From a virus, in the IMG/VR virus record IMGVR_UViG_3300028833_002847: 64,000 nucleotides of DNA; one strand, given 5' to 3'. Of the stretch, positions 4,877 through 60,751 are shown in pieces (positions within the stretch are counted from its first letter, which is position 1; the number at the start of each line of letters is the position of its first letter). Made by a program: the position numbers and the translations under genes. The notes beneath the pieces were generated by a model that made no database searches, was not told the DNA's origin, and saw nothing but the letters and a program-made list of their open reading frames with translations.

Positions 4877-5008
4877 AGATTGACCCTTACCCTCATCAAT
4901 TACTTGTTGAGCTTCTGGGTATTGATCTACTCATAGATAACCAGTTGTTAAAAGATATTCTCTTTCAGTTTCATTACCAAATTCATCTGTATCAGTAAAA
5001 GTTTGGAA

Positions 5009-5329
5009 TCAAATGCGAGCATCTGGAGCTACAAAACCATAAGGAACAGTTTTACAAGAAAAATGAATTTCTCCATCTTCTATAGTAATTACATCTCCGT
5101 GGTCGCCAAAATCTTCTTTGTCTTTAAGATAAGCTCCAACAATTGGGCATCCCCGTAAAGTTTTTGACATTTCAAGAGCTGCATTCTTATCAATATATGA
5201 ACCATTACGATTTTTACCGAGATAAAGTACTTTAATTTGACATTGGGCCATTAGAGGATTGATATCAAGTGGAGTTAACTCGATAAACTCCGGATCAGCA
5301 ATTGTTTTAATTGATCTATTATTATTCAT
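5009..5329 (-). CDS. Hypothetical protein, 106 aa
   Basis: ORF in the track, between the portal and scaffold genes. Confidence 0.3.
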   Translation of the reverse strand: MNNNRSIKTIADPEFIELTPLDINPLMAQCQIKVLYLGKNRNGSYIDKNAALEMSKTLRGCPIVGAYLKDKEDFGDHGDVITIEDGEIHFSCKTVPYGFVAPDARI

Positions 5330-5337
5330 CTACCCTC

Positions 5338-6882: not shown

Positions 6883-6906
6883 ATTTATTTACACCCCCTG
6901 TCTATT

Positions 6907-7343
6907 TAATATCCAGCAGCATTAAAAATATAGTCATAAGAAATCTTATTCTCATCATATCATGGAATTGCTACCAATTTTAATCCATGTTTATCACAAT
7001 ACTTTCTTTTAGTTAAATCATTATGTTTCTGTCTTTGTAAACCTAATCTTCCACCAAATTTAGGTATTGCTTTATAATGCTGTCTACCTTGAAATTCTAT
7101 TAAAAAATCTATGTCTCCATCATCTGTAAAGACACAAAAATCAAATCTTAAATGACGACCTGACTCTGCAATCAAATCGTCAAATTCATATTCTTCAGCA
7201 AATGGAATGTCATTATCTGAGAGTATATTATATATTTTAACTTCACCTGCGGAATCTCTCATTATAAATTCACTCCTTAATACATATTTAACTTTCAATT
7301 TATAATAAAAATTAAGCAAACTAAATAATTCTTTTTTGCCCAA
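6907..7343 (-). CDS. DUF559/Vsr-like PD-(D/E)xK endonuclease, a possible homing endonuclease inserted between terminase and portal
   Basis: Motifs FDFCVF...IDFLIEFQGRQH...D..KRKY..KHGLKLV match the DUF559 signature. One in-frame TGA. Confidence 0.45.
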
Positions 7344-7348
7344 AAATT

Positions 7349-9110: not shown

Positions 9111-9179
9111 GTCGTCACCACCAACTTGAGCAAATACTTGTTCAGTTTCAGAAGCAATCATATCATCTAAATTGTTAGT

Positions 9180-10515
9180 TCAAAGTTCAGCTTCTAACTC
9201 TCCATCGTCATCATCTTCTTCTTCAATATAAGCAGATTGAGTTAAGAGAGCATCATAATTTGCGTCAGCTTCTTTTTGAGCTTTTTCAGACTCTTCAAGT
9301 TTTTGAATATAAGATTCAATAAGGTCGCCAAGACCCATTTCATTTTTAACAAGATTACGAGTATAAGCTTGCATATCTTTTAGTGTAAAATCAACTTTAT
9401 CTTCTTTAGCATCAATACCTGGTCTAAATTGGTCAATAAAAGTACCAGGTTCTAACTCTCGTTCAACAGCAGCTACTAATTCCCCAACAGAATCAATGTA
9501 AGCTTCTTGTTCTTCTTTATTTTGAGCTTCTGTAAATTTTGCTGATTTCCGCAATTGATCAAGAACTCCCGCTAAGTTTTTATAAGAAGTAAAATCTTCT
9601 ATTTCAAGAGCTTTATCCATTTTAATAGATGTGCGGCAAATCTTTTTTAAAGCTTCCTCACGGTCAACATTCATTTCATAAGTATTAGTATACTTATTAT
9701 AAAGATTTTCCATTTGTACTCATTCTGAAGGAGTAAAAGAAGCACCTCATTTAATAGTAAGATATTTAATATCTTCACTAGTTAAACTATTTTTAATTTG
9801 CATTTCATTTTCATCTATTGTAGTAGGCATATAGCTCATCATAGTATCAACTGCGTTTTGTAAAGCAGCTTCTTCTTTTTTTTCTTGCATTTCAGCTATT
9901 TGCTGTTGAACTTGATGAAAAGCTTGTTTTTTACTCAACTTTTGCTTAGTTGCTTCATCTCAATCATGATCTTCTGGAGAGGCTTTATCTAAACCAAGCA
10001 ATATTTTTTCTTTCTTAGTTGCTGTTGCCCCAAGAGGCTCATGATAAGCCATTAAAAGCTGATTATCACCTGTTAATGTGCGGTACTGTTCAAGTGTTAT
10101 TTCTCCCGCATCTAACTTAGCTTTAAATTCAGCTTTCTTTTCTTCAGAAACAATATTATCTCTCCCATGAATATTTACTCAATGTTCTGTAGCTGCATCA
10201 CTATCTGCATAACGCCATTTTCTTCAAGGATTCATATTTGTTGTGCGGATATAGCGACCAATTACGGATTTGTTAGAAAACGTCCCAGGATTACGAAGAT
10301 AAGCAGCTTGAGCAACAGATACTCATAAAGGTTCTATATACGGTACATCAAATTCTTTTAAAATTCAATCAAAAGTTGATGGATCATCATTTTTAATATA
10401 AGTAGTTAAACAATCTTTACAATAATCAAAACGAGTACCATCTTTCTTTTTAAAAAAATTTGTTTCAGGTATCACTCGTCCGCACTTTTGACATGTCATT
10501 CTTTTTTTTGTAGCC
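9180..10515 (-). CDS. Zn-ribbon/acidic protein, about 444 aa, in the small-terminase position. Function unknown
   Basis: Starts MATKKRMTCQKCGR with RBS GGAGGAAAAAGATAA-ATG. ORFs 9747..9938 and 9180..9713 are in the same frame across TGA codons. Confidence 0.3.
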
Positions 10516-10529
10516 ATTTATCTTTTTCC

Positions 10530-11603
10530 TCCTTTCTTTTTTCTACACTCTTTACAAATAGAGTAATAACCATCTTTTGACGAATTAGGAGAAAAGAAAA
10601 ACGGATGTGCGAGGAGAGAACGACCGCATTTCCCGCACGTCTTTCATCTATGACCCATTGGTTCTTCATAGGTAAAATATCAAAGAAGATAATTTTTCTG
10701 AGCTTGTTCTGCTACTAGTTTAGGAATTTTTTTAGTTCAAATAGTAGAATAATACTGCTCAGAATGTTCTTCTTGATATTTATCAAAAATCATTTCTTTT
10801 ATTTCTTTATTTGTATAACCATCTATTTTTCAAATTAATACATCATAAAAAACTGGATATTTCTTTTCTAAAGCATCGTCAACTACTTTTTCTAAGTCCA
10901 AAAGATGTCAATGAATGTCAGAATCTAACATATCTCAAGTTTCTTGTTTTAATTGTTGATAATATTGAAGAAGGAAAGAAATAGAATCTGGTTTAAGTAA
11001 TGATAATGGTTGGTCACTGTGCGGAATAAGGTCTTTATCAAAATATACTTTTTCTGGGATAGACACATTTGCTAAACCAGAAACCATATTATTGGCTACA
11101 GACCGTCCTGATTGATTAGAACCTTTAATCATATAAGCTTGTTTCCAACTATCAATTAAAGCAGTTTTTAATTTTTTCTTGCGGTAACTCGTTGTTGCTT
11201 CGTTGTATTGTCGTTCTAATGACGCTATTACATCCATGCATTCCCGCAATCCACGTATATTATCTATATCCTCTTGGGTAATTGGATCTTTGTGGTCTAA
11301 AAGTTGGTCTTTATTATTGTTAATAATATTATAGATTCCATCTTCACCATTTTTTAACTTATCAACTAATCCTTCATAAGAAATTTGTCTTTTTAATACT
11401 GTTGCATCTCTATTTTTAGTAACAATTGGATATTCTTCTAAGCGTTCTTTTGTTGTTTGTTTTTTATCTCCGACATAAAGGAGGTAATCACTAAGATTTA
11501 TTAAATCTTGCGGAGATAATTCCTTTTGCTGAGATGTGATTGATTCAACTAGAACTTTTCTAGTTGTTTCACTTCTTATATCATGATTTAATTGCATCAA
11601 CAT
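10530..11603 (-). CDS. Hypothetical protein, first gene of the minus-strand late operon, with a C-terminal Cys-rich segment
   Basis: ORF 10935..11603 with RBS TAAGGAGGTGAT-ATG. The frame continues through TGA codons to about 10530 (CGKCGRS...CKECRKK). Confidence 0.35.
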
Positions 11604-11760
11604 ATCACCTCCTTATACATATATATATTATACCCAATTTTATAAAATTTTATACCAAAATTATTCATTTTTGCCCAAAAAATTATTGGCACTTTGAAAT
11701 AGTATATGCTATAATATATTTAAAGAAAAAGAGAGTAAAGGAGTGAGTGCTTGATAGAAT
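11604..11760. promoter_or_regulatory. Divergent promoter region separating the minus late module and the plus early module
   Basis: Plus-strand TTGGCA-18-TATAAT at about 11683-11715, followed by an AAAGGAG RBS. A reverse-strand TATAAT lies upstream of the minus-strand RBS. Confidence 0.4.
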
Positions 11761-26685: not shown

Positions 26686-26843
26686 TACTTTTTCCTTTCT
26701 CTTACTTTCTTATTATAAGTATATCAGAAATATCTTCCAATTGTCTAAAAAATTTTTCCTCAATTCTAATTTTTATTTTTGACAATCTTCTAAAAGATAT
26801 TTTATAATATTATCCAATAGGCAAAAGAAAGGAGTTATTCCTT

Positions 26844-27593
26844 ATGATATATATAACTGGAGATTGCCACGGAGAAGTTCTTCAAAGATTTAGTTATAAT
26901 AAGCATCCATTTCTTAAAAATTTAACCGCAAATGATACTATCTTTGTTTTAGGAGATATTGGATTATATTGGCCTAATTATGAGAAAGAAACTGAATATC
27001 AATTAACTAATATTAACAAACCTTGGAAAACAATATTTATCGCAGGTAATCATGATAATTATGATTTTATAGAAACTCTACCAATAGTTCAACCAAACTT
27101 TTTAATTTCTGGAACTATTAGACAAGATAAACAATTTTATTGGATAGATAAATCTTGTATTTTAAAAATAGATAATAAAATAATACTCTGCATAGCTGGA
27201 GCGAAATCTCACGATTCTAAATATATATTTGAAAAAGAAGAAAAATCCTTTATAAAAATAGCAAAAAGAAGAAATTTACCGTATAGAATAAATCATATAA
27301 CATGGTGGAACCAAGAGGAAATAGATATAAAGGATGTGCGGGCAACCCTTAAAAATTATGGTTCAAACAAAGTTAACTATATCATGTCACACGATGCTCC
27401 CGCACACTTCAATAATATAGCTAAAAAAATAGATATATATAATGATTATGAAGATAATGAAGGAGAGCTTTTTCTTGAAGAGTTAGATCAAACATTAGAC
27501 TTCGACTATTGGTATCACGGACATTATCATTTCGAAGATTATATTTACGAAAATCATGTGTGTGTTTATCATTCTATTTTACCAGTTAAATAA
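26844..27593 (+). CDS. Calcineurin-like metallophosphoesterase
   Basis: GDCHG ... GDIG ... GNHD motifs. RBS AAAGGAG. Confidence 0.6.
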   Translation: MIYITGDCHGEVLQRFSYNKHPFLKNLTANDTIFVLGDIGLYWPNYEKETEYQLTNINKPWKTIFIAGNHDNYDFIETLPIVQPNFLISGTIRQDKQFYWIDKSCILKIDNKIILCIAGAKSHDSKYIFEKEEKSFIKIAKRRNLPYRINHITWWNQEEIDIKDVRATLKNYGSNKVNYIMSHDAPAHFNNIAKKIDIYNDYEDNEGELFLEELDQTLDFDYWYHGHYHFEDYIYENHVCVYHSILPVK

Positions 27594-27723
27594 AAATAAT
27601 TTATCAACTGAATAAAATTTCTTGTTCCCAACTGTTCAATTTTCATTATATAATATAATTGTCCAAAGGGGAGAGGACAAAACACAAAAAGTGTTTGACC
27701 CGTAGGACACGAAAGGAGCCATT

Positions 27724-28122
27724 ATGGCTAAGAAGTTTAATGTTACCCGCAAGGACGCTCTCAATCAGATTATCGTTTTCGCTCGTGAGAATGGTTATGA
27801 CAACGCAGATGTTCTTGAGGTTGTTGATAACATGCTCTCTAAGCTCCAGACTACTACTAAGAATACTGGTGAGACCGTAGCCCATCGTCAGAATGCTAAG
27901 CTCTTGGAGAAGAATCTTCATCTTTTCGATGGTGAAGACGTAGCTCTTACTGCTCGTGAGTTTGCTACTATTGCAAAGGATTTTCCGGTTGACAATACTG
28001 GACGTCCTTCTGTGCATAAGGCTACTGCAATTCTTGTGCAAGGAATTAACGATGGTATTCTAACCAAGGTGGCTCCTGAGAAGAAGTCTCACCCTATGCG
28101 TTACGCTCTTAAGCAGGACTAG
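27724..28122 (+). CDS. GC-rich paralog family member C, 132 aa
   Basis: Paralog of 16049..16438 and 20720..21108. Confidence 0.6.
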   Translation: MAKKFNVTRKDALNQIIVFARENGYDNADVLEVVDNMLSKLQTTTKNTGETVAHRQNAKLLEKNLHLFDGEDVALTAREFATIAKDFPVDNTGRPSVHKATAILVQGINDGILTKVAPEKKSHPMRYALKQD

Positions 28123-28227
28123 TATTTATTAAGAGAAAGGATTTTATGCATCCTCCTTGATATTTTGTTTAGTCCTATTGGCTTTCAACTAAAGGAGCAA
28201 TGATATGCATCCTCCTTGATGATTTTT

Positions 28228-28308
28228 GGGCGTCTCAGTTAGGAAGTTGTTTTAAGATAGTCCGGACCCTGTCTTAAAACCCAGCTGAGACGCCCTATTT
28301 TTTTTATT
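28228..28308 (+). terminator. Long structured rho-independent terminator
   Basis: 11-bp stem GGGCGTCTCAG/CTGAGACGCCC enclosing an inner TAAGATAG/CTGTCTTA hairpin, then a T10 tract. Preceded by two copies of ATGCATCCTCCTTGAT. Confidence 0.55.
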
Positions 28309-28359
28309 TTCAACTGTAAAATTAAAATGATATAATATAATTGTCGAAAGGAGAGAAAG

Positions 28360-28650
28360 ATGTTCTATATTGATGAGAATGATTATCCTGAGAGCTATAG
28401 TGAAGAAATTCTTAAATATCAAACAAAAATTCTTGAAGTTGTAAAAACCTTCAGTGGAGAAAGGATTGATATGTTTGAGAAGTCTATTTCTATTGTTTTT
28501 GGGCAGCGTATTCGCATTGAATATGACTGGGTAGGACATCGTGGAGAACTTTTCCTTGCGACTCGTGAAGATGCTTTTGCACAGAACATCTACAATGAAG
28601 ATATGTACTGGGATTCTTATGAAGAGGATTATGACTATGATAGGTATTAA
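28360..28650 (+). CDS. Hypothetical protein, 96 aa
   Basis: ORF with TATAATATAATTGTCGAAAGGAGAGAAAG leader. Confidence 0.35.
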   Translation: MFYIDENDYPESYSEEILKYQTKILEVVKTFSGERIDMFEKSISIVFGQRIRIEYDWVGHRGELFLATREDAFAQNIYNEDMYWDSYEEDYDYDRY

Positions 28651-28905
28651 TACCGAAATGTATCCAGATTCTTACGACAATAATACAAATGCTTTCTCTT
28701 ATCTTTCAACCATTAAATCATTATATGAATCTGAACAAAGTCTAGAGTATGAACCTATAATTGAAACTCTTATTTATAAAGCTGAGAAAGAAAATATTTA
28801 TATTCGTTTTGGTTGGATTAATCATGAACATGAATATTTTCTTGCAACTAAAAACGATGCATATGATGAAATTGCATATTTGCTATATGATTGTGAGGGA
28901 TAATA

Positions 28906-29391
28906 ATGGGATTTGAACTTGGTTTTTCCACTCACGAATACGATGAAAACCGTGACTTTATTAAAGATATTTTTTGGTCTTGGTGCGGTTGGGAAAATAC
29001 AGACCTTTATGAAGCTCTTTCTGAACTTTCTAATGAAGGTTATACTCGTGCTTGTTCTGATACTGAATGTCATATTCCAATTGAAAATCTTGCATTTATA
29101 GAGACTCTTTATACTCGTCTTTATAATAATCCTCATTATGTTATATATCATAAACTTCTTGAACTTGAAAAAGATGATTTTGCACAGAAGTATTTTGATA
29201 ATCTTACTATAGACCAGAAAGCTGTATTTTATCTTTGCTTTTATTTTGATGACCCTAAAATTACAGCTTTTACTCGACTTCTTATTGAAAAAATTGAATA
29301 TGAAGGCTATTTTATTGTAGAATCTCTTTATGAAGCTTATCAAAAAGCTAAAGAAATGAATCTTAAAGAGGTTATACTTTATGGAGGATAA
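28906..29391 (+). CDS. Hypothetical protein, 161 aa
   Basis: ORF in the track. Confidence 0.35.
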   Translation: MGFELGFSTHEYDENRDFIKDIFWSWCGWENTDLYEALSELSNEGYTRACSDTECHIPIENLAFIETLYTRLYNNPHYVIYHKLLELEKDDFAQKYFDNLTIDQKAVFYLCFYFDDPKITAFTRLLIEKIEYEGYFIVESLYEAYQKAKEMNLKEVILYGG

Positions 29392-29447
29392 AAAGTGCGG
29401 GACATGCCCTCATTTTATTAAGAAGGTGTCGTAATTGAGTTTTGGAA

Positions 29448-29528
29448 TGATTTTTGCATTGTTTCTTGTTGCCGCTGTAGTGATTATAGGTCTTTGTGGA
29501 GGTGGCGATCCTCCCGCATACTCTTAAA
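29448..29528 (+). CDS. Tiny hydrophobic peptide, 26 aa (MIFALFLVAAVVIIGLCGGGDPPAYS)
   Basis: Short ORF that is a paralog of the 34667..34795 peptide (shared I.G.CGG core). Confidence 0.25.
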
Positions 29529-29593
29529 TTTTTCTTGTCTATTGGTCTAAGAATATTATATAATATACTTATAGAGTGAAAGGAGATATTCTA

Positions 29594-30565
29594 ATGACCA
29601 AGGATTTCTTTAAGTATAACCATGTTATTCGTTATGGTAAGCAAGATGTAGACGGTTATCTTAATGGTACTGTCTATGTTGAGCCTAAGATTGATGGTAC
29701 TTCGTCTGCTATCTATTGGGATGGACAGGACTTTGTTGTTCAGTCTCGCAATCGTATTATTACTCTTGAAAAGGATAACGCAGGTTTCTGTGATTATATT
29801 CTTAATATTACTGATGGTGTTGCAGATGTAATTCGAGATTTTTGTAAGGCACATCCTAACATTGTTGTTTATGGAGAATGGATTGGTGGCTGTTTTGGCC
29901 GCAAGTTCATCGGAACTATTAAGTATTATCTTCGTGGTGGTTTTTATGTATTTGACCTTCGAGATGCTAATATAGACCGTTCAGATATGGAAGCCTTTAC
30001 TGTAGACCATAAGGGTTTTTATACTCCTGATGATGATATTTTCATTGAACTCCGCAATCTTATTCCAGATAATGTCGTTCCAGTAATTGCTAAGCTTGAA
30101 AATCCAACTTTTGATGAACTTCTTCAGCTTGTAGAAGATTGTCATTATATTGTTCCTGAGAACGAGCACGTTGAAGGTGTAGTTCTTAAGAATTATGCTT
30201 ATCGTGATAAGTATGGGCATTTCCAAATCGCTAAGATTGTCCGCAAGGAATATGTAGAATCTAAGGGACAAAAGCATCATGTGGTAGTTGAGCCTGGAGC
30301 AGATGAAAAGGCTATTATTGCTGATTGTATGCTTAATGCTAAGCTCGAAAAGACTAAGAATAAGGTTCTTATCGCTCTTGGAGAAGATGAGTGGAAGAAT
30401 GAGGGTAAGTTTATTGGTTTCTTTCTTAACCTTATTTGGGATGATTTTATTAATGAAGATTTTGATAATCAACTTCTAAAGCGTTATAATTATCCAACTC
30501 TAAACTTTGCTCAGCTTAAGAAGCTTGCATTTATTCGAGGACGAGAGTTTCTTGGACTCTGTTAA
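29594..30565 (+). CDS. ATP-dependent RNA/polynucleotide ligase (covalent nucleotidyltransferase superfamily)
   Basis: Motif I KxDG (VEPKIDGTS), a downstream VVYGEWIG motif and a C-terminal Lys-rich region. RBS AAAGGAGATATTCTA-ATG. The track ORF starts earlier at an alternative codon. Confidence 0.55.
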   Translation: MTKDFFKYNHVIRYGKQDVDGYLNGTVYVEPKIDGTSSAIYWDGQDFVVQSRNRIITLEKDNAGFCDYILNITDGVADVIRDFCKAHPNIVVYGEWIGGCFGRKFIGTIKYYLRGGFYVFDLRDANIDRSDMEAFTVDHKGFYTPDDDIFIELRNLIPDNVVPVIAKLENPTFDELLQLVEDCHYIVPENEHVEGVVLKNYAYRDKYGHFQIAKIVRKEYVESKGQKHHVVVEPGADEKAIIADCMLNAKLEKTKNKVLIALGEDEWKNEGKFIGFFLNLIWDDFINEDFDNQLLKRYNYPTLNFAQLKKLAFIRGREFLGLC

Positions 30566-30593
30566 GAAAGAGTGCTCCGCACTCTTTCTTTTA
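30566..30593 (+). terminator. Rho-independent terminator
   Basis: GAAAGAGTGC-TCC-GCACTCTTTC followed by a T tract. Confidence 0.6.
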
Positions 30594-30802
30594 CATAAGG
30601 ATAAAAAAAATGAATTGATATTGAATATTATTACCTGAAGTTTTTATATTTTTATTTAGTACTCTTGCATTTAATGAAGACCTTCCTTTTTGGAAAATAA
30701 TATTATATATTCATGGTGCTTTATTTATTTTAATTGAAATAATATTATTAAGTTATCAACTTTGTACTAGTTTAAATATTCCTGTAATGAAAGTAGGTTA
30801 AT

Positions 30803-51230: not shown

Positions 51231-54200
51231 ATGGCAAAATTAATTGATCTTGGTGGATTAACGGAATTCTTCTCTCATTTAAAAAGAATGTTCGCATTAA
51301 AATCTCAAATAACAAAAGTTAATTATGATGCCGGAACAGGAGGAAGAGCTCGATTATTACTAACGCAATCAGATGGATTAACAGAATCAGTTCCTCTTCC
51401 AACATATGAAGTTCTTGAAAATTATCCTTCAATAGATTTAACTGAAGAATCTGATGGAGTTATTTTTCAAGTTAATAATATAGATGGCTCTGCGGTAACG
51501 AAAATTTTCCATGGCACGCAAGGAGAAAAAGGTGACACTGGAGCAACTGGTCCACAAGGTCTTACAGGCCCAAAAGGTGATAAAGGAGATACAGGAGCTA
51601 AAGGTGATACTGGAGCAACTGGTCCGCAAGGAGAACCTGGATTAAGCCCTACTTTAACTGAAACTCAAACTTCTACGGGTTATGATATTGAGATTACAGA
51701 TACTAATGGAAGTAGAACTATTTCTATTTTAAATGGTAATGATGGAGAAATTTATGACGAAGTAACCCAAGAGGTTCACGGAATTATGTCTACTTCTGAT
51801 AAAATTAAATTAGACAATATTGCGGACAATGCAACAAAAACAGAAATAATAAATAATGGTAAAACAGTTTCTATTACAGATGCTAATGGAAATACTACAA
51901 CTTACAACGAACCTTCTTTAGCTACTTATCTTTTAGATGGGTTAATGTCTAAAGATGATAAAGAAAAACTTGATTCAATTCCTGCAGAAGCTTCAAAAGT
52001 TTCAATTGATATTTCTAATAATAGACTTATTATTGAAGATTCAGAAGGAAATCAAAATATTTATACAGGAGAGTTTGAAGGTTATAATGATATAGGTACA
52101 TTTAATGGAAGTTTAGATAATTTTTCTATTCCAGTTGGATTCTACAATTTAGTAGAAGGTCAATATTCAAATGGACCTGAACAAGATTTTAATGATATAG
52201 AATTAAATAATGGTATTTTTATTCAATTTGGAAATACTGTTAAGACTCAATTAATTTATGGAGCTCAAGGAATAACTACTGGTTATTTATTTTTTAGAAA
52301 TTATATCAACAATCAGTGAACAAATTGAATATTAATTAATCCTCCATTAGAATTAACAGAAGCTACTCAATCAGCAAATGGATTAATGTCAAGCATTGAT
52401 AAAACTAAATTAGATGGTATTGCAACTAATGCTAATAGAACAGAATTTGCTAATTCTATTTTATCTATTGTTGATGAAAATGGACAACGACAAAATGTTA
52501 ATATTGTTGATAGTACAAAACAGTTTTTTATTAATGAAAATTCTAATACTGCTAATTTTAATAATAGTAATGAAAAATTTATAACAGGGTATGATGCTAT
52601 AGGAAATAGTCAATCATTTTATTCTGATTATAATAGAGTTAATTTTTTAGGAGAATCTAGTTTAATTTCTAATATTATAAATTCAATAGAGAATAATAAT
52701 GCTACTGCTGTTACCTTTTATGAAAAATATGGTAATAAAATTATCTTATTTGATATAGATAATTATGTTATATACAGTTATTCATTTAATAATATTAATA
52801 ATCTTTTTACTTTAGATTCTTCTTATACTATTCCAATAGCAACAGAAAAAAAAGAAGGATTAATTTCTTCAAATGATTTACAAAAATTAAATAGTATTGC
52901 GAATAATGCTGTAAACGTATCTCTTGATGAAACTACTAATACTCTTACTTTTATAGACGGTGAAGGTAATGAAACTATTTTTGAGGCTGCTCCGCAATCT
53001 AATGATAATATTGAAATTTCTTCTTTAACTTTTAATGGAGAAACTTTTGGAAAATATCTTAAATTAATTAATGGAGATGAAGAATTAGTTTTAAGTTCTG
53101 ACTTTAATAAAGAAAGTTGAATTTTATCAACATCAGAAATAACTAATTTTGAATCACTTTTAAATGATTCTTCTAATTTAAGAGATATATATAAATATTT
53201 TGGTAATAAAATTACTATTTTAGAAAAAGATACAGGTGATATTTTTACTTATTCTTTAGAAGAAAATTCTTATGAAAAAAGTATTATTACTCAAAATACT
53301 ACTTATGGATTAAATTATAATCAAAATACTCATACAATGTCTTTATCTCAAGTTTATAGTAGTTCTGATATTGAAATACCTTTAGCTACAGATGAAATTG
53401 CAGGTTTACTTAGTTCATTAGATAAAGATAAAATTGATTCAATTGTTGAGGGTGCTACAAAAATTGAAATTTTAGATATTGATGACCAAGAGAGAAAAGT
53501 AACTATAGGCAATTTAGAAGATGAAAATAATTATCCTTTATCTTTTGGTAGTAATATTATTATTGTAACAAATAATAATATTGATAGTTTGCGGAATAAT
53601 CTATCAAATACCGCTAGTCAAATTGAATTATATAATCAAGAATATGGAAATATTTTCTATTTATATAATATTGATAGTGCGGAATATTGATATTGTGAAT
53701 ATAATGCAACTTTAGAAATATATGAATTAACTAAATATTCTATTCCTGAAGCTACTCAAGATAAATCTGGTTTATTATCTGATAGTGATAAAACTAAATT
53801 AGATAATATAGAAGATAATGCTAATAATTATATTCTTCCAATAGCAACAGATGAAAGCCTTGGAGGTTTTAAAGTAGGAAATGGTTTGTCTATTTCTGAA
53901 ACTGGTATATTATCACTAAAACTTGGTACTGGATTATTATTTAATTCTAGTAATCAATTAGTTATAGATACTTCTACTCAAAATAATACAGAAGTTGAAG
54001 GTGGAAATAGTTCTTGAGAAGTTACTGAAAAAACTGGTTTAGAATCTCTATTTATAGGTGGACATTCTGGATTAAAAATTACACCTTTAACAGAATATAC
54101 AAATGCTTTAATTTTAGATATAGATGAAAATACTTTTACTTTTAATGAAAATAAATTAACAATTTCAAATATTCCTATTTCTAAAGGCGGAACAGGTGCA

Positions 54201-54923
54201 GCTACTAAAGAACAAGCTCTAATTAACTTAGGAGCCCAAGCATTACTAAAAGATAGTTCATATATTTATATAGGAGATAATAATACTATACAATTTGATT
54301 ATGGTTTATTTAATAGAAATCTTGCAGAAGATTATATAGTTGAAATTAAACCTGAAAATTTTGAGCGTTATTTAGAAAATATAACCACATCTATAGAAGT
54401 AGCTACTTTTTTTAATGATTATTATGGTAAATCAAATTTCAGAATTAAATCTCAAGATGATTTTAAAGTTTATGAATTAGCTTTTAACCAAGAGACAGAA
54501 GTATATGAAGTAGAAAAAATTTATAATTATAAAACAGCTAGTGCGGACAATGACGGACTTCTTTCGGCAGCAGATAAAAATAAATTAGATAAAGTTAAAG
54601 ATTATGAATTTGGTTCAATAGAACCAGAAAGTAATCGTTTATTTGATGGTATGCTTTGATTAAAAACGGAAGATAATGTTATTAGTTTTAGAAGATGAAC
54701 AGAAGTTGATGATAACGAAACTTTCAATTACCCTAGTGGAATTAATTATAGTAATATTAATTTGTATCCTGATGATAATATTTATCCTAATATAGATGCA
54801 GATTTAATATATCCTAGTGAAAAATTATTTGGAAGTTATATTTTAACTCCTAATACTAATATATATCCAGAAAATGATGCTTTCCCGCACAAGGGGAATG
54901 GTTGAATAATTTATACGACATAA
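51231..54923 (+). CDS. Long tail fibre, about 1230 aa, with a collagen-like Gly-X-Y repeat region. Contains TGA codons
   Basis: GEKGDTGATGPQGLTGPKGDKGDTGAKGDTGATGPQGEPG tract. Repeated DKxKLD(G/N)I motifs. Frame continuous to TAA at 54921. Confidence 0.5.
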
Positions 54924-54936
54924 AAGGAGGAAGAGA

Positions 54937-55212
54937 ATGGCTTATAGTAGAATTAATTTTAAAAATGGTGCGGAAGGTGGAACTCCTTTAAGCGCTGCTA
55001 ATATGAATCATATAGAAGATGGAATAGTTGAACTTGAAACTAATAAACAAGATAAATTAACTGCGGGAAGTAATATTACAATTACTGGAAATACTATTTC
55101 TGCAACTGTCCCGCAAGTTCCTAATGAAACAGTTGATTTAACTTTTACTTATAGTGATGGAACGAGTGAAGTAATTTCTTTTGTAATTGATGATAGTAAT
55201 GTTGGAGAATAA
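54937..55212 (+). CDS. Hypothetical tail-associated protein, 91 aa
   Basis: ORF with RBS AAAGGAGGAAGAGA-ATG. Confidence 0.35.
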   Translation: MAYSRINFKNGAEGGTPLSAANMNHIEDGIVELETNKQDKLTAGSNITITGNTISATVPQVPNETVDLTFTYSDGTSEVISFVIDDSNVGE

Positions 55213-55214
55213 AA

Positions 55215-55907
55215 ATGACAGCTATTAATTTTACAGATATTCGTTCTATTGGGTTACATAATAAAAGTGTAACTCAAATTAGTTATACTAATTCAGGTGA
55301 AATTATTTGACCTACTCCTTCTCTACCTTCTAATTATACTCGTGGAGATTTTTTACAGCAACACTTATCTGATAATAGAGGTGCTCATTTTTCTCTTCCT
55401 ATTGGTTTAACAGAAGATATTCAATTTGAAATTACTTTAAGTTTTAATACTTTAGGAGAAGAAGAGGAAGAAAAAAGAAATATTTTAGGTTGTTATGATG
55501 ATGAAGAAAATGTAGTTTGAGGTTTACAAATTTTAAATAATGAGTTATATTTTAATGAAGAACTTGTTCAAAATTTTTCTTTGTCAGAAGATACAATTTA
55601 CAATATAATTATATTAGATAATGAGTTAAGGATTAATGGAAATTTAGTTCATACTTCTTTAATTCATCCTTTTGAATGAAATTATTTAGGTTTATATGAT
55701 TTAATTTTACCAGACCAATCTATTGATATTAATTTTCAACAAGCAGATATAAGTATTTACAAGGTAAGAATAAAAAATAATGGTACTTATTCTTACGATT
55801 GTGTACCTGTTGAAAATAATAATACTCATTATACCGGTTTATATGATTTAATTGGTCAAAGATCTTTTTATGATAATCAAAATCCTACTATATTAACTGT
55901 AGGAACA
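55215..55907 (+). CDS. Hypothetical tail-associated protein, about 230 aa, with TGA codons
   Basis: Frame continuous from ATG 55215 to TAA 55905 with TGA read as sense. Confidence 0.35.
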
Positions 55908-55924
55908 AATTCTTAAGCTGGTAT

Positions 55925-55954
55925 AAAAAACTTTTTGACAACTTGTCGTAAAAT
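55925..55954 (+). promoter_or_regulatory. Consensus promoter TTGACA-18-TATAAT at the head of the tRNA array
   Basis: Exact hexamers. Similar promoters at 59843-59872 and 60961-60990. Confidence 0.55.
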
Positions 55955-56097
55955 ATTGTATAATATATTTACAGAGTCGGAAAGAGGTTAAACAAAAATG
56001 TTTTGATTGAAAAAGAAAAGAAGTTGATAAAAAAAAATAAATGACAAATGAATTAAAAGCATAGTATAATATATTTAAAGAAATTGATAATTGATAA

Positions 56098-56172
56098 TTC
56101 CTCATGGTGTAATTGGCAACACAATGGATTCTGGTTCCATTATTTCACGTTCGAGTCGTGATGAGGAAGCCA
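56098..56172 (+). tRNA. tRNA-Gln (anticodon CUG), CCA encoded
   Basis: Cloverleaf built by hand: acceptor TTCCTCA/TGAGGAA, D GTGT/ACAC, anticodon stem ATGGA/TCCAT with loop TTCTGGT, T-arm TCACG-TTCGAGT-CGTGA. Confidence 0.6.
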
Positions 56173-56208
56173 CGCCCTTGTGACGGAATTGGCAGACGTA
56201 GTGGACTC

Positions 56209-56990
56209 AAACAAATTTGAGCACTTAGATTTGGAAACTGCTAAGTGAATGCTGGCTAATTCGGTGAAACTCTATTTAAGTAGACAACGCCGAGCTAAAT
56301 TTTTAGGGCAGACCCATATAATTTAGTCTTCCTAAATTTTATTTATATTGGATAAGTGAGACATGGAAGGATAAAAATGGGTCTAAAAAAATATTCTAAA
56401 GAATGGTTAGAAGAGCTTTGTAAAGATAGTTTTTCTTATGCAGAAGTATTAAGAAAAGCAGGTAGAAAACAAGGCGGCGGTGCTCAAAAAACTTTGAGAG
56501 AAAAAATTGAGTTATACAATATTGATATTTCTCATTTTACAGGACAAAATTGGAGAAAAGGAAAAACTAAAAAATCTGATAGTAGACTTTTACAGCAAGG
56601 ATTAAATCAAGAAAAATATCTCCTTGAAGAAGTTTTTGTAAAAAATAGTCCTGTTACTCAAAAAGTTTTAAGAGGGTATATCGAAAGACATTCTGTATTA
56701 GAATATAAATGTCAAAATTGTGGATGTAATGGTAATTGGCAAGGTGGAAAAATTGCTCTTGAAGTTCATCATATTAATGGTGATAATAAAGACAATAGAT
56801 TAGAAAATCTACAGTATTTATGTCCAAATTGCCATGCTTTAACTGATACTTATTGTGGCAAAAATAAAAAGTCCTAAAATAAATGTGTAGAGACTATATA
56901 CCAGCCTCCTAAGTTGAAAAATATGGAGAAGACATAGTCCAGACTACAACTACTTTTAGTAGGCTATGGTGACATAGTGTAGTAAGAAAA
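56209..56990 (+). mobile_element. Group I intron candidate within tRNA-Leu(CAA), encoding an HNH homing endonuclease
   Basis: Lies between the tRNA halves. Conserved group-I P7 strands and P9-like hairpins in the 3' part. ORF in a peripheral loop. Confidence 0.5.
56377..56877 (+). CDS. HNH homing endonuclease (intron-encoded)
   Basis: CQNCGCNG...LEVHHINGDNKDNRLENLQYLCPNCH HNH motif. RBS GGAAGGATAAAA-ATG. No TGA. Confidence 0.65.
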   Translation: MGLKKYSKEWLEELCKDSFSYAEVLRKAGRKQGGGAQKTLREKIELYNIDISHFTGQNWRKGKTKKSDSRLLQQGLNQEKYLLEEVFVKNSPVTQKVLRGYIERHSVLEYKCQNCGCNGNWQGGKIALEVHHINGDNKDNRLENLQYLCPNCHALTDTYCGKNKKS

Positions 56991-57077
56991 TCCACGGGCT
57001 TCGGCCGTAAGAGTTCGAATCTCTTCAGGGGCACCAAAATGTTAATAATAATTGACGTGATAGTTAAAACAGTTACT

Positions 57078-57153
57078 TCTCTGAGATTAGCTCAATTGGT
57101 AGAGCGTTTGTTTTACGTACAAAATGTAATAGGTTCGAATCCTATATTTTAGA
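57078..57153 (+). tRNA. tRNA-Val (anticodon UAC)
   Basis: D-arm AGCTCAATTGGTAGAGC, anticodon arm TTTGT-TTTACGT-ACAAA, T-arm ATAGG-TTCGAAT-CCTAT, acceptor with G-U pairs. No CCA. Confidence 0.55.
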
Positions 57154-57190
57154 TTTTATACCTGTTTTATAGATTTCCGTCAATTTTAAT

Positions 57191-57286
57191 ACTCCCATAG
57201 TGTAATGGTAGCACAGTGGTCTTCAAAACCATAGCAACCTGTGTCCAAAGCAGGCGGTCTCTGTTCGAATCGGAGTGGGAGTGCCA
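57191..57286 (+). tRNA. Opal-reading tRNA: anticodon UCA, class-II architecture (long variable arm), G73, CCA encoded
   Basis: Acceptor ACTCCCA/TGGGAGT, D GTGT/GCAC, anticodon stem GTGGT/ACCAT with loop CTTCAAA, 26-nt variable arm with a CCTG/CAGG stem, T-arm CTCTG-TTCGAAT-CGGAG. Confidence 0.6.
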
Positions 57287-57546
57287 TTGTAAATAAAGCG
57301 TGATAGTAAGAAAGTTACTTCGCACACAATGCAACAGACTCTTAATCTGTCAATAACACTTTCTTTATTATTTCCGCTAATATTAAATATTTATTGGTGA
57401 GAATAAATATTTAGTAAGATGATTGTAAGAAAGATACTTCAACTCATAAACAGTTACGGCATAGAGCTTTCTTTCTTAAAAATATCTCTTGCATTAGTTT
57501 TATTAATAATTTGACGTGATAGTTGAAATAGTTACTTCATATTTAA

Positions 57547-57619
57547 CTCAATGGGTAGAGTAATTATCTTGTAAATAATCTGTTATTGGTTCGAATCCAA
57601 TGGTATGTGCTTTTCACTA
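57547..57619 (+). tRNA. tRNA-Thr-like (anticodon UGU). The acceptor pairing is imperfect
   Basis: D-arm ACTCAATGGGTAGAGT, anticodon arm ATTAT-CTTGTAA-ATAAT, T-arm ATTGG-TTCGAAT-CCAAT. Mismatch at pair 1:72. Confidence 0.4.
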
Positions 57620-57647
57620 TTTCATAAATTTCCGTCAATTTTTTTAT

Positions 57648-57723
57648 GGGACTTTAGCTCAGTTGGTAGAGCAGAGGACTCTTAATCCTAAGGTCATGGG
57701 TTCAAACCCCATAAGTCCCACCA
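57648..57723 (+). tRNA. tRNA-Lys (anticodon CUU), CCA encoded
   Basis: GGGACTT-TA-GCTCAGTTGGTAGAGC..., loop CTCTTAA, T-arm ATGGG-TTCAAAC-CCCAT, AAGTCCC-A-CCA. Confidence 0.6.
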
Positions 57724-57727
57724 TTAA

Positions 57728-57800
57728 CGGGATGTAGGGTAATTGGTAACCCCCTGCATTTGGGATGCAGTTATTGCACGTTCGAGTCGTGTCATCCCGA
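57728..57800 (+). tRNA. tRNA-Pro (anticodon UGG)
   Basis: Acceptor CGGGATG/CATCCCG, anticodon arm CTGCA-TTTGGGA-TGCAG, T-arm GCACG-TTCGAGT-CGTGT. Confidence 0.55.
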
Positions 57801-57839
57801 GATTTTATTTATTTATTTAAAATATTCTTAAGAGGAAAA

Positions 57840-58415
57840 ATGGGAGTAAAATTATCACAAGAAGAAGTTATTAGAAGAATTAAAAAAAATTTTAAGCAAG
57901 ATGTATCTCTTATTAGTGAATACAAAAATAAAAGAAGTAAAGTTAAATTACATTGTAATGAATGTGGATATGAATGAGAAGCTTCTGCTCAAACGGTTAT
58001 TGATAATAATAGTTGTCATGTTTGTCCTAATTGTAATAATATAAAACAAAAATTTCATTGTGCTTATTGTAATAAAGAAATTTATAGAATTCCTTCTGAG
58101 ATAAAAAGAAATAAAAGTGGTTATTTTTATTGTTCAAAAACATGTGGAAATTTACATAAAAATTTATTAAGAAAAACATCAGGAGAATGAAATAATTCTA
58201 AAAATTATAGATTAAAAGCTTTTGAAAAATTAGAGCATTGTTGTGTTTCTTGTGGATGAAATGAAGATGAAAGAATATTAGAAGTTCATCATATAGATGA
58301 AAATAGAGATAATAATAATATAGATAATTTATGTATTCTTTGTCCTACATGTCATAGAAAATTAACTTCTCATTATTATATATTGACACCCTCTTTTAAA
58401 GTAATTTTAAAATAA
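57840..58415 (+). CDS. Free-standing HNH endonuclease containing 3 in-frame TGA codons (first at 57975-57977)
   Basis: CVSCG-TGA-NEDERILEVHHIDENRDNNNIDNLCILCPTCH HNH motif. Frame continuous across the TGA codons. Confidence 0.6.
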
Positions 58416-58421
58416 TTTAAC

Positions 58422-58500
58422 GGGCTGAGGGACTGCTAGGAGTGGTCACCTGTCCTGCAAACAGGAAAGCAGCTGGGTTCGAATCCCAGTCGGTCTACCA
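58422..58500 (+). tRNA. tRNA-Ala (anticodon UGC) with G3:U70 and A73, CCA encoded
   Basis: Acceptor GGGCTGA/TCGGTCT including the G3-U70 identity pair. Anticodon arm CCTGT-CCTGCAA-ACAGG. T-arm CTGGG-TTCGAAT-CCCAG. Long D-loop. Confidence 0.5.
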
Positions 58501-58548
58501 AAAATTTTTTGGACAAAAATGAATAATTTATAGTATAATTTTTATATT

Positions 58549-58622
58549 AATATTAAATTCTCTTGTAGCTCAAAAGTAGAGCACACGACTGATAATCGTG
58601 AGACGAAGGAGCGTTACCTTCC
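58549..58622 (+). tRNA. tRNA-Ile (anticodon GAU) with an atypical T-loop, CCA encoded
   Basis: TCTCTTG-TA-GCTCAAAAGTAGAGC-A-CACGA-CTGATAA-TCGTG ... GAAGG-AGCGTTA-CCTTC-CGAGAGA-A-CCA. Confidence 0.5.
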
Positions 58623-58623
58623 G

Positions 58624-58709
58624 AGAGAACCATGGGTCAGCTTCCGAGTTGGAGAACGGAGACAGTCTGTAAAACTGTTGCTTTAATGCTGAGTAGGTTC
58701 GAATCCTGC
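58624..58709 (+). tRNA. tRNA-Tyr (anticodon GUA), class II, CCA encoded
   Basis: Acceptor GGGTCAG/CTGACCC, D TCCG/CGGA, anticodon arm ACAGT-CTGTAAA-ACTGT, long variable arm, T-arm GTAGG-TTCGAAT-CCTGC. Confidence 0.6.
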
Positions 58710-58729
58710 CTGACCCACCAACATTAAAA

Positions 58730-58804
58730 TTGGAAGGTAGCTCAATGGTAGAGCCATCGGCTGTTAACCGATCTGTTGTGGGTTCGAGCCCCACTCTTCC
58801 AGCC
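58730..58804 (+). tRNA. tRNA-Asn (anticodon GUU), CCA encoded
   Basis: Anticodon arm ATCGG-CTGTTAA-CCGAT. T-arm GTGGG-TTCGAGC-CCCAC. Confidence 0.6.
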
Positions 58805-58807
58805 ATA

Positions 58808-58884
58808 TGGTTGTATAGCTCAGTAGGTAGAGCAAAGGCCTGAAAAGCCTTGTGTCGTTAGTTCGATTCTAACTACAACCACCA
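58808..58884 (+). tRNA. tRNA-Phe (anticodon GAA), CCA encoded
   Basis: GGTTGTA-TA-GCTCAGTAGGTAGAGC-A-AAGGC-CTGAAAA-GCCTT ... TACAACC-A-CCA. Confidence 0.65.
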
Positions 58885-58890
58885 AATTAT

Positions 58891-58968
58891 GGGACTGTAG
58901 CTTAGCTGGCTTAAAGCGTCGGACTGTCTCTCCGAAGATCGTGGGTTCGAATCCCATCAGTCTCGCCA
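58891..58968 (+). tRNA. tRNA-Asp (anticodon GUC), G73, CCA encoded
   Basis: Anticodon arm TCGGA-CTGTCTC-TCCGA. T-arm GTGGG-TTCGAAT-CCCAT. Acceptor GGGACTG/CAGTCTC. Confidence 0.6.
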
Positions 58969-58972
58969 ATAT

Positions 58973-59046
58973 GGAGTCTATAGTATAATGGTTAATTACG
59001 ATTGGCTGTGGCCCAATAAATGAAAGTTCGATTCTTTCTAGATTCC
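58973..59046 (+). tRNA. tRNA-His (anticodon GUG) with G-1:C73. No CCA
   Basis: Extra 5' G pairs with C73. Anticodon arm ATTGG-CTGTGGC-CCAAT. T-arm GAAAG-TTCGATT-CTTTC. Confidence 0.5.
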
Positions 59047-59117
59047 CGGAATGCTTTGTCTAAAACCTTCACGTGGTGCATTCTGATTTCGACTAATATT
59101 AGACAATATATTATAAA

Positions 59118-59201
59118 GGGCTTGTGATGGAATTGGCAGACATGATTGCCTTAGAAGCAATTGCTTTATGCGTGGAAGTTCGAGTCTTCTCAGGCCCACC
59201 A
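59118..59201 (+). tRNA. tRNA-Leu (anticodon UAG), class II, A73, CCA encoded
   Basis: GGGCTTG-TG-ATGGAATTGGCAGACAT-G-ATTGC-CTTAGAA-GCAAT-long arm-GGAAG-TTCGAGT-CTTCT-CAGGCCC-A-CCA. Confidence 0.6.
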
Positions 59202-59220
59202 AAAGAACAAAGGAGACAAT

Positions 59221-59751
59221 ATGTCAGAAAAAGTAGGTATTGCTGCACCTTGAATTGATTATGCTCGTAAAGTTCGTGCTTTATTCGCAAATGATCCAGA
59301 TGTAATTGTAGAATATGATAATGAAAATATGAAACTTAACTTGCGGGTCAATGGAACAGCAAAAGCAGATGCTCTTGCTCAACTTCTTCCAACAGAAAAA
59401 GAGTTTGGAAATGTAGTTCTTGCAATTAATGTTATTCCCACAAATGGTGGAAAAACATGTGCTAATCTTCTAAAAGATGCTTTAATTGGTAACAATGCTT
59501 TTTATGATATTATTGATTTTACTAAAGATACTCCGTATCCAGATGTAGTATATGTAGTTTTTGATAATAATGTAGTTCAATATCCTAATGATAATCTTAG
59601 TCATTATGCGGGAGTAGAAACTACACTTTATGCGGATATTGCTAAAGAAGTTTTTGAAAATGTAGATGGTAATGTTTATTTTAATACTATTTACGATGAA
59701 GATAATGATCTTCATTCAGATATTCCTTCTGGAGTTTGGCCTGTAGATTAA
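59221..59751 (+). CDS. Hypothetical protein, about 176 aa, with one in-frame TGA, embedded in the tRNA array
   Basis: RBS AAAGGAGACAAT-ATG. Frame continuous across TGA at codon 12. Confidence 0.4.
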
Positions 59752-59869
59752 AAATTTTTTTTGACAGATTGAATTAAAATATAATATAATATAAATACAG
59801 TGAGAGAGAAAAAAAATAGTTAGTTAAGACAGAAAATAATTTTTGACAAGATGATAGAAGATATGTTAT

Positions 59870-60560
59870 AATATTAATTGACAAGAGGGGACTTCAAAGA
59901 AACCGCGGAAATCTTTGAAGAGTGGTAACCGGCTCTCAGCGGCCTAGGAGACAAATACGGAATCCTAGATAGCGCGTGCCACGAAAGGAGTCATGACCTT
60001 TCTAAACAGCGAGAGATAGAATAACGAGGTGGTCTCTCGGGAAGTGTTACCTAAGTCAATTATTATCTGAGTCTGGTTTTCCTCAGATATAAAGTTAAAA
60101 AAGAAAAGTCCAATGTCTGTTACTCCACAGGCCACAAAAGGAGAAAAGACTTGGCCGTGAGAACGAGTCTATATGAAAGAACTCTCATATTTGTTTAGTT
60201 GGAGATACGGTATCGAAAGCCGTTTATCCCGATTATACTGGGATAATAGTTTAAAAGGTAAAAATATCAACTAACAAGCGCTTTACTCACATAGAGAGGA
60301 CAGCTGTGTCGGATCAGTCCAATCAGTCCAATCAGTTGCGCAAGTGGTAGGAAAGGAGGCATCCGAAACTACTGCGACATGGATACATAGAAGAGCCTTC
60401 ACGTGGCGTATCTGTTTTTACTAATCTTCTTAATAGCCGAAGAGACGGCCTTAGCATTTTAGCTAAGAGAATGTACCGCGAGAGATCGGACGGGTGAAAC
60501 GATAACATCCTGAAAACAACATTAGGAAAGTAGACTCGCAACGCTTTCCAATAGGAGAAA
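59870..60560 (+). ncRNA. Candidate large structured ncRNA of about 700 nt: ORF-free, GC-enriched, downstream of a consensus promoter
   Basis: No plus-strand ORF of 60 aa or more. Roughly 45% GC against a 30% background. Strong promoter TTGACA-18-TATAAT at 59843-59872. Many hairpins, e.g. CTTCAAAGA...TCTTTGAAG. GAAAAGTCCAATG and GGGTGAAACG motifs reminiscent of RNase P RNA conserved regions. Confidence 0.35.
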
Positions 60561-60564
60561 AGAT

Positions 60565-60751
60565 ATGAAAAATTTTTTAGAAAAAGAAATAAAGAAATGT
60601 CATAGTAAAACAAGTTATGAAACTAAAGATATTGCTTCGCGGGAAGGGCATTTAATTTTAAATTATAAAGAATTTAGAGTTTATCAGTGTCCATATTGCG
60701 GGCAATGACATATTACTACTGGGTCTGTAGCTTAATAGGTAGAGCACAAAC
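60565..60751 (+). CDS. Small zinc-ribbon protein with a TGA codon, overlapping the tRNA-Met 5' end
   Basis: MKNFLEKEIKKCHS...QCPYCGQ-TGA-HITTGSVA. Confidence 0.25.

Follow-up and report, generated by a model that had tools for sequence, protein, structure and literature searches.

The locus considered here raises the question of what occupies a gap of 860 nucleotides (nt) in the transfer RNA (tRNA) array of a virus, the IMG/VR record IMGVR_UViG_3300028833_002847, of which a stretch of 64,000 nt (hereafter, the window) was analyzed. tRNA genes were called in the window with ARAGORN, run without and with its intron search (-i), and with an Rfam covariance search. ARAGORN and Rfam placed 26–27 tRNA genes at 56098–63810, and the standard searches left the gap between tRNA-Gln (56098–56172) and tRNA-Val (57080–57154). 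ARAGORN without the intron search missed a gene at 56174–57036, which the program with -i called as tRNA-Leu(caa) [56174,57036] i(36,778), the sole intron-containing call in the 64-kb window. An earlier note on this DNA had proposed a class II tRNA-Leu(CAA) split by an intron of about 780 nt, and this proposal is borne out by the -i call, which gives an intron of 778 nt, and by the clean 85-nt fold of the joined exons. Based on the results below, 56174–57036 is very probably one phage tRNA-Leu gene, and the 778 nt that separate nucleotides 34 and 35 of its anticodon are a group I intron of the IC3 tRNA type.

The 5′ exon, located by ARAGORN -i and the fold of the spliced tRNA, lies at 56174–56208 (all features of the gene are on the plus strand). 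It reads GCCCTTGTGACGGAATTGGCAGACGTAGTGGACTC and comprises the 5′ strand of the acceptor stem, the D arm, the anticodon-stem strand GUGGA, and C32, U33, and C34. The intron extends from 56209 to 56986 and ends in UAAG, with omega-G at 56986, so the terminal G that had been anticipated is in place. The 3′ exon (56987–57036; AAAATCCAC...CAGGGGCACCA) supplies A35–A38, the stem strand UCCAC, the long variable arm, the T arm, the 3′ strand of the acceptor stem (CAGGGGC), A73, and CCA. The position at which this half had previously been thought to begin, about 56991, is the start of the anticodon-stem strand TCCAC; the exon proper begins at 56987. When the exons are joined, the product folds as a class II tRNA-Leu(CAA) of 85 nt, which has an acceptor stem of 7 bp as well as A73 and CCA, the latter encoded in the gene. 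The insertion point falls between anticodon nucleotides 34 and 35, and the 3′ exon opens with AAAAUC. The splice junction had been described as ambiguous, but it resolves to CUC↓...G↓AAAA (arrows mark the splice sites) because only this register yields both an omega-G end and a 7-nt anticodon loop; the register is identical in all relatives. The 5′ exon ends in C rather than U, as had been noticed from the letters (C34, at 56208), and the anticodon is CAA rather than the UAA typical of the family. A tRNA with C34 reads UUG rather than UUA/UUG.

The intron contains each of the helices of a group I core. P1 (56206–56221) is formed by exon CUC (56206–56208) and intron AAA, which pair with the guide sequence UUUGAG (56216–56221), as indicated by the sequence, the alignment columns, and the minimum-free-energy fold. 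It is followed by the P2 hairpin (56222–56247; CACUUAG with CUAAGUG). The 5′ strand of P3, GCUGG (56251–56255), finds its partner in CCAGC (56901–56905). The P4-P5-P4′ domain (56260–56294) consists of the P element UUCGGUG, the P5 hairpin (56271–56284), and the Q element CGCCGAG, and aligns with the IC3 introns of Nostoc and Acidobacteriota. In P6, UUUUAGG (56301–56307) pairs with CCUAAAA (56873–56879), and this helix surrounds an open reading frame (ORF). The R element (56885–56897) is made up of J6/7 (GUGUAGA) and the 5′ strand of P7 (GACUAU, 56892–56897), and in the R region GUG-AGAGACU is invariant in the phage, Acidobacteriota, and Nostoc introns. The P8 hairpin (CUCC ... GGAG) occupies 56906–56928, and the S element (56929–56940) combines J8/7 (AAGAC) with the 3′ strand of P7 (AUAGUC, 56934–56939). 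The strands GACTA and AAGACATAGTCC, earlier pointed out as P7-like, are thus the R and S elements, which do pair as P7. Finally, P9 (ACUAC with GUAGU, 56943–56983) encloses P9a (56950–56962) and P9b (56964–56977). Either exon is a possible partner of the guide sequence: its GAG matches CUC of the 5′ exon, and its UUU could pair with AAA in the 3′ exon (P10); before the first step, the guide UUU is taken by the first three bases of the intron, AAA.

The structure was evaluated on a family alignment (A1) of 23 members from which the ORFs had been trimmed. RNAalifold recovered the anticodon stem, P2, P3, P4, P5, P6, P8, and P9 from A1. The full structure, including P1 and the P3/P7 pseudoknot, was written from the window sequence and then tested on A1. 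It comprises 62 pairs in 12 helices, and 91.6% of cells were paired in the 23 family members, compared with 34–41% in a control in which the 3′ partners were slid by 1–3 columns. Compensatory changes, with both sides altered, were present at 40 of the 62 pairs, and none of 500 shuffles attained any of the observed measures of pairing or covariation. P3 and P8 were paired in every sequence (100% of cells) and covaried strongly (five of five pairs in P3 and three pairs in P8). The P7 pseudoknot was 96% paired with two covarying pairs, and an invariant G-C occurred where the guanosine-binding site is expected. The P1 columns contained CG in 23 members, UA in 23, and UG in 19 with CG in 3. The window intron alone, with its ORF trimmed, folded into P1–P6 and P9 at −68.1 kcal/mol (z = −4.96). 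The earlier note had considered that the two halves would be unrelated pseudo-fragments if no group I core could be folded; a P1–P9 core was found, and it is backed by covariation.

To place the intron among known ones, we used reference sequences of Nostoc PCC7120 and Acidobacteriota introns from the supplement of PMC13011429. The window intron aligned end to end with the tRNA-Leu(UAA) intron of Nostoc PCC7120 and with a tRNA-Leu intron from Acidobacteriota (alignment A2); the invariant columns number 66 and take in the two junctions as well as the P, Q, R, and S elements. According to PMC13011429, the Nostoc intron is a positive control that self-splices in vitro, and the Acidobacteriota intron is classed as IC3. 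Because the core is backed by covariation and the alignment with these introns is end to end, the intervening sequence is, judged from its sequence, a group I intron of the IC3 tRNA-Leu 34/35 family. Three other classes of interrupted tRNA gene were considered. A group II intron is ruled out by the group I core and by the lack of a reverse transcriptase; an archaeal intron of the bulge–helix–bulge type is ruled out, as bacteria and phages are without that machinery; and a split, trans-spliced tRNA is ruled out by the contiguity of the gene.

The ORF in the intron, at 56377–56877, lies wholly within the loop of P6 (L6) and would encode an HNH homing endonuclease of 166 amino acids. An HNH gene at these coordinates had already been read from the letters, and it gains support from matches to Pfam PF01844 (9e-6; 26.2 bits against a cut-off of 21.4) and to phrog_10822 of PHROGs (7e-51). 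The HNH motifs are intact in the translation, with two CxxC pairs, which provide the zinc-binding cysteines, and HH..N..N..H (CQNCGC ... HHINGDNKDNRLENLQYLCPNCH). A Shine-Dalgarno sequence, GGAAGGA (56365–56371), stands 5 nt upstream of the ATG at 56377, a start that is backed by homologues beginning with MGLKKY or MALQKY, and the stop codon UAA overlaps the 3′ strand of P6. Related introns carry homologues in this position, with 57–73% identity. In a sequence search of the PDB with the HNH protein, the best match was McrA (E = 0.004), which covered the HNH motif only, and there was no close solved structure.

Relatives were sought in phage contigs through IMG/VR scans of limited extent. A 20-mer around the S element (GGAGAAGACATAGTCCAGAC) occurred in 13 IMG/VR contigs and the P4/P4′ pattern in >120, and ARAGORN -i with inspection of the junctions yielded about 40 distinct phage tRNA(UAA) genes with an intron of the same family at 34/35. 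Their exon context is ...ACUU↓intron...G↓AAAAUC..., and the shortest introns of the family measure 205 nt and have no ORF, the longest 926 nt. The loose pattern ACTCN{2,6}AAATTTGAGC gave only chance matches among the matches listed, and a tighter version of it added only locus L489, a close variant of L127 (loci are cited by our own numbers). A megablast of 55000–58000 against 50,697 GenBank phage records returned no match, and the ORF-trimmed gene, searched in distant mode against the 50,697 phage genomes, gave a single weak match, in the crAss-like phage cr115_1 (RefSeq NC_055898.1; L367). There, an unannotated tRNA gene at 1354–1654 is split by about 228 nt of group I-like intron (21 bits with Intron_gpI); as we read its junction, CUCU↓AAC, the anticodon would be CUA, that of an amber suppressor, and the intron would lie at 35/36. 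Similar "cta" calls with introns were obtained at the IMG/VR loci L048 and L050. Additionally, four IMG/VR loci (L033, L073, L097, and L102) carry phage tRNA-Met(CAU) genes, called by ARAGORN -i only, with introns of about 200–210 nt, the same P4 core, and the exon context ...ACUCAU↓. In six loci (L008, L012, L014, L127, L020, and L117), the intron-containing UAA or CAA tRNAs have a short variable arm (76–77 nt, class I-like) in place of the long one of canonical tRNA-Leu; their amino-acid identity is uncertain. In the window itself, the other gaps of the array (57040–64000) contained no further group I core.

The endonuclease gene takes several forms among these relatives. It is intact in L6 in the window and in L019, L011, L127, L008, and L055; truncated or frameshifted in L003, L128, L098, and L012/L014; absent from L015, L010, L006, L046, and L105; and placed elsewhere, in the P1/P2 region, in L007, L026, L041, L054, and L118. 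Across the tRNA-Leu genes of IMG/VR, the insertion site is found empty, with an ORF-less intron, with an intron carrying an intact ORF, or with an intron carrying a decayed ORF. An intron-less allele of the exact tRNA of the window was not found; 113 phage contigs share its anticodon arm, the best of them with about 80% identity over the whole tRNA. The states of the HNH gene, together with the incongruence of exons and introns described below, appear to be the classical signature of a homing element in a cycle of invasion, decay, and loss.

Among known elements, I-HmuI (SPO1), I-TwoI (Twort), and I-BasI (Bastille) are HNH homing endonucleases of phage group I introns. In the window, as in these cases, a peripheral loop of a phage group I intron codes for a small nuclease of the HNH (beta-beta-alpha-Me) type, which presumably promotes homing in mixed infection; the difference is that their introns split protein genes (DNA polymerase, nrdE, and others), whereas that of the window splits a tRNA gene. 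According to reviews, the group I introns of phages lie in protein-coding genes. A preprint on Lak megaphages (bioRxiv 10.1101/356790) describes "enigmatic" introns in phage tRNA genes, stated to be previously unreported and assigned to no class; the window intron shares this location, but its group I nature is demonstrable, and it contains a homing endonuclease gene. Our searches of the open-access literature turned up no description of a group I intron in a phage tRNA gene or in a tRNA-Leu(CAA). The earlier note had regarded such an intron in a phage tRNA array as notable; in the sense of rarity this was overstated, given the roughly 40 relatives, and it holds with regard to the open-access literature on phage tRNA genes.

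Group I introns at position 34/35 of tRNA-Leu(UAA) are known from cyanobacteria, plastids, and other bacteria. The window intron agrees with that of Nostoc/Anabaena PCC7120 in the 34/35 site, the exon context ACU[U]↓AAAAUC, the P/Q/R/S core, and the anticodon stem that holds the exons. It differs in having C34, a C-G splice pair, and the anticodon CAA where the Nostoc gene has U34; in carrying, in L6, an HNH gene for a protein of 166 amino acids, the 249-nt intron of Nostoc being free of ORFs; and in residing in a phage tRNA array, whereas the Nostoc type is found in cellular and plastid genomes. The bacterial IC3 introns of Azoarcus tRNA-Ile, Acidobacteriota tRNA-Leu(UAA), and the HNH-bearing tRNA-Leu(UAA) of Bacteroidota have the same subgroup architecture, and the window intron differs from them by its phage host and its CAA anticodon. 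According to a 2026 survey of complete bacterial genomes (PMC13011429), insertion sites extend across the anticodon loop, the introns are mostly of the IC subgroup, and homing genes are rare; for tRNA-Leu(UAA) introns, a single HNH homing gene is recorded, in Bacteroidota. An exact copy of the S element (AAGACATAGTCCAGAC) was also present in >120 bacterial genome contigs of GTDB (loci L134–L253). Many of these contigs belong to Omnitrophota, Planctomycetes, and Elusimicrobia; their 3′ exon reads G↓CUAAGCAG, and ARAGORN called them mostly as tRNA-Arg UCU. In rumen and gut Clostridia, the S element AAGACATAGTCCAGAC lies within tRNA-Leu(UAA). The element is of a classical type, one that proved common in phage metagenomes. 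In structure, the window element belongs to a known family, and it departs from that family by its host, a phage array, by the homing gene in L6, and by C34 with its C-G pair.

Several observations weigh against the view that this is a working tRNA-Leu gene with an IC3 intron. First, the general Rfam model scores below its gathering score (50 bits) even for ORF-less relatives. The Rfam search proposed in the earlier note was run with Intron_gpI (RF00028), and at the gathering threshold it gave no Intron_gpI match in the window or in seven related loci. In E-value mode, the two halves of the window intron did match (56199–56406, 26 bits, E = 2.4e-4; 56809–56960, 16 bits), and they stay below the gathering score because the 500-nt ORF splits the core; the ORF-less relative L015 reached 44.9 bits over the whole model (E = 2e-10). 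Given the covariation and the alignment with Nostoc, we regard the sub-threshold score as a limit of the general model. Second, the U·G wobble at the 5′ splice site is near-universal, and the window has a Watson-Crick C-G (C56208-G56216) in its place. The guide-sequence G is invariant in all 23 aligned introns, and the exon base facing it is U in 19, C in 3, and a gap in one, so that 19 of the 22 scorable introns have U·G. In the Tetrahymena intron, a change from U·G to C-G slows the first step substantially. Because of this replacement, splicing of the window intron could be inefficient. Rare natural exceptions with C-G at the splice site have reportedly been noted by Hur and Waring in 1995. 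Third, UUG makes up only 5.5% of the Leu codons in the ORFs of the window, and a demand for tRNA-Leu(CAA) is not obvious.

The unusual base itself is not an assembly error, because an independent metagenome contig, L018 (Ga0247609_10308609), which is 97.8% identical to the window over 1.3 kb, also carries C34. The two sequences differ at 28 positions, 27 of them in the flanks; the block 56098–57036, which holds tRNA-Gln and tRNA-Leu with the intron, differs by one indel only, in an A-run at 56866, at the very end of the ORF. C34 was found in only three phage lineages: the window and L018; L127/L489, with a 757-nt intron and an HNH protein 57% identical to that of the window; and L105, with a 207-nt intron that has no ORF. 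Neighbor joining on the intron core groups the three C34 introns, which differ from one another by about 15%, in a single clade, with the U34 intron L046 as its sister. The C-G splice pair has been kept through this diversification, including in the endonuclease-less L105. This persistence in diverging lineages, one of them without an endonuclease, argues that the C34 introns still splice. Among the 120 bacterial loci sharing the S element, ARAGORN called no intron-containing tRNA(CAA), and GGACTCaaa had no match within the part of the bacterial survey supplement (PMC13011429) that was searched.

Why a phage array should carry tRNA-Leu(CAA) can be explained in two ways. Besides tRNA-Leu(CAA), five other tRNAs of the array have C34 and serve rare G-ending codons (Gln CUG, Lys CUU, Glu CUC, Ser CGA, and Thr CGU, given as anticodons) in a genome of 31% GC; TCG accounts for 2.6% of the UCN Ser codons and ACG for 4% of the Thr codons. 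Because these five serve such codons, the phage may supply C34 species that are missing from its host. The other explanation is that C34 hitch-hikes with the intron. Exon bases adjoining a homing site are normally co-converted, and for this reason the intron could bring C34 into the UAA genes that it invades, turning tRNA-Leu(UAA) into tRNA-Leu(CAA) as it spreads. C34 indeed follows the intron lineage, as the three C34 introns form one clade in unrelated exons, and in its tRNA body L127 shares 87% identity with the U34 tRNAs of L012/L014, the intron of the latter falling in another clade and carrying a different HNH subtype. Moreover, ARAGORN -i called no tRNA-Leu(UAA) in the array of the window, although UUA makes up 39% of its Leu codons, far above UUG. 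However, the five other C34 tRNAs suggest a deliberate supply of such species, and intron-less phage tRNA-Leu genes with an identical anticodon arm are common with C34 (41 contigs, compared with 72 with T), so the intron may have homed into existing CAA genes. On balance, we consider hitch-hiking a possible but doubtful origin of the CAA anticodon.

A different explanation accepts the intron as genuine group I and holds that the C34 copy is impaired in splicing, leaving a decaying pseudo-tRNA that is kept as a vehicle for a selfish HNH gene. The C-G in place of U·G and the rarity of UUG codons would both fit, and homing elements can persist without benefit to the gene that hosts them. Against it, every core helix is intact in the window, the tRNA exons retain perfect cloverleaf pairing, A73, and CCA, and the single indel against L018 in the block 56098–57036 stands against 27 differences in the flanks. 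C34 with an intact core also recurs in three diverged lineages, in one of which, L105, no endonuclease drives it. Impaired splicing therefore seems improbable to us.

Alternatively, splicing might need a protein, either the HNH protein acting as a maturase or a factor of the phage or host, to offset the C-G splice pair. Some intron-encoded endonucleases do act as maturases, as is established for LAGLIDADG proteins, and genes for an RNA ligase and an RNA-binding protein are likewise present in the window (the ORFs at 29576–30565 and 41089–42540, the latter matching phrog_850 "RNA-binding protein"). Against this, L105, a C34 relative without an ORF, shares the core but has no such protein, and we know of no maturase activity in HNH intron proteins. 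Furthermore, the IC3 tRNA introns of Nostoc and Azoarcus self-splice efficiently, as reported in PMC13011429 and PMC13168695. A dependence on protein is thus quite unlikely. That the tRNA halves are unrelated fragments flanking a free-standing HNH gene by chance, for which nothing speaks except that standard tRNA finders miss the gene, has practically no probability: it is refuted by the ARAGORN -i call, the covariation, and the Nostoc alignment, and the same layout of two exons and one intron, with covarying helices, recurs in dozens of phage contigs, including ORF-less versions of 205 nt.

We return to the reading of the locus as one tRNA-Leu gene with a self-splicing type of intron, all parts of which are intact. 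From this anatomy and from its family membership, we infer splicing, endonuclease activity, and homing along the following course. The gene would be transcribed as part of the tRNA array, and the intron would fold into its P1–P9 core, in which the 5′ splice site is held by pairing of exon CUC with the guide UUUGAG. The 3′ exon would be positioned by the anticodon stem (GUGGA with UCCAC), possibly aided by the UUU:AAA pairing of P10. Exogenous guanosine would then attack after C34, and the freed 3′-OH would presumably attack after omega-G at 56986, to give the 85-nt tRNA-Leu(CAA) and the free intron. By analogy with other phage HNH intron endonucleases, the HNH protein would cut or nick intron-less tRNA-Leu alleles during co-infection, and repair would copy the intron into them.

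The surroundings of the gene were also inspected. TGA is seemingly a sense codon in structural genes at 3953–11612 on the minus strand and at 51204–54923 on the plus strand of the window. When TGA was read as Trp, 5338–6888 (minus strand) matched the portal family phrog_2739 over amino acids 23–483 (E = 1.5e-81), and 7349–9166 (minus strand) matched the large terminase family phrog_2 over amino acids 52–562; each of these PHROGs matches crosses 3–4 in-frame TGAs. Pfam gave no match for the read-through terminase and portal candidates. In the genes at 26808–44657 (plus strand), TGG is used and in-frame TGA is almost absent. At 57191–57286, 155 nt downstream of the intron-bearing tRNA-Leu, lies a tRNA(UCA) ("SeC" in ARAGORN) whose variable arm is long and which is likely a TGA suppressor. 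About 10 of the substitutions between the window and L018 cluster at 57260–57280, in the T-arm region of this tRNA, and the neighboring tRNAs are identical; possibly, a suppressor tRNA that evolves fast has acquired compensatory changes here. The array also holds a ROOL RNA (61217–61864; Rfam, 297.6 bits), directly followed by a weak Y-RNA-like (YrlA) match (61872–61999; 32.5 bits, under the gathering score), and a tRNA with a CAU anticodon (62700–62771; Rfam, 38.3 bits) that ARAGORN missed.

These results bear on phage tRNA arrays and on the history of the tRNA-Leu intron. Since standard finders miss intron-bearing tRNAs, the tRNA repertoires of phages are under-counted. The C34 copies are natural test cases of how far a group I ribozyme tolerates the loss of U·G when the function of the anticodon dictates the base. 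The horizontal spread of the tRNA-Leu intron has been argued over for decades, partly because the classical copies have no homing gene. Phage arrays with HNH-equipped introns at the same site, in all stages of gain and decay, offer a concrete and testable vector and mechanism for that spread. It is a tentative and rather unlikely proposal that the intron lineage rewrites anticodons through co-conversion of C34 and that phage arrays are the mobile reservoir, long sought, behind the patchy occurrence of the "ancient" tRNA-Leu intron in bacteria. If it were true, a selfish element would be altering the decoding repertoire of phage tRNA arrays.

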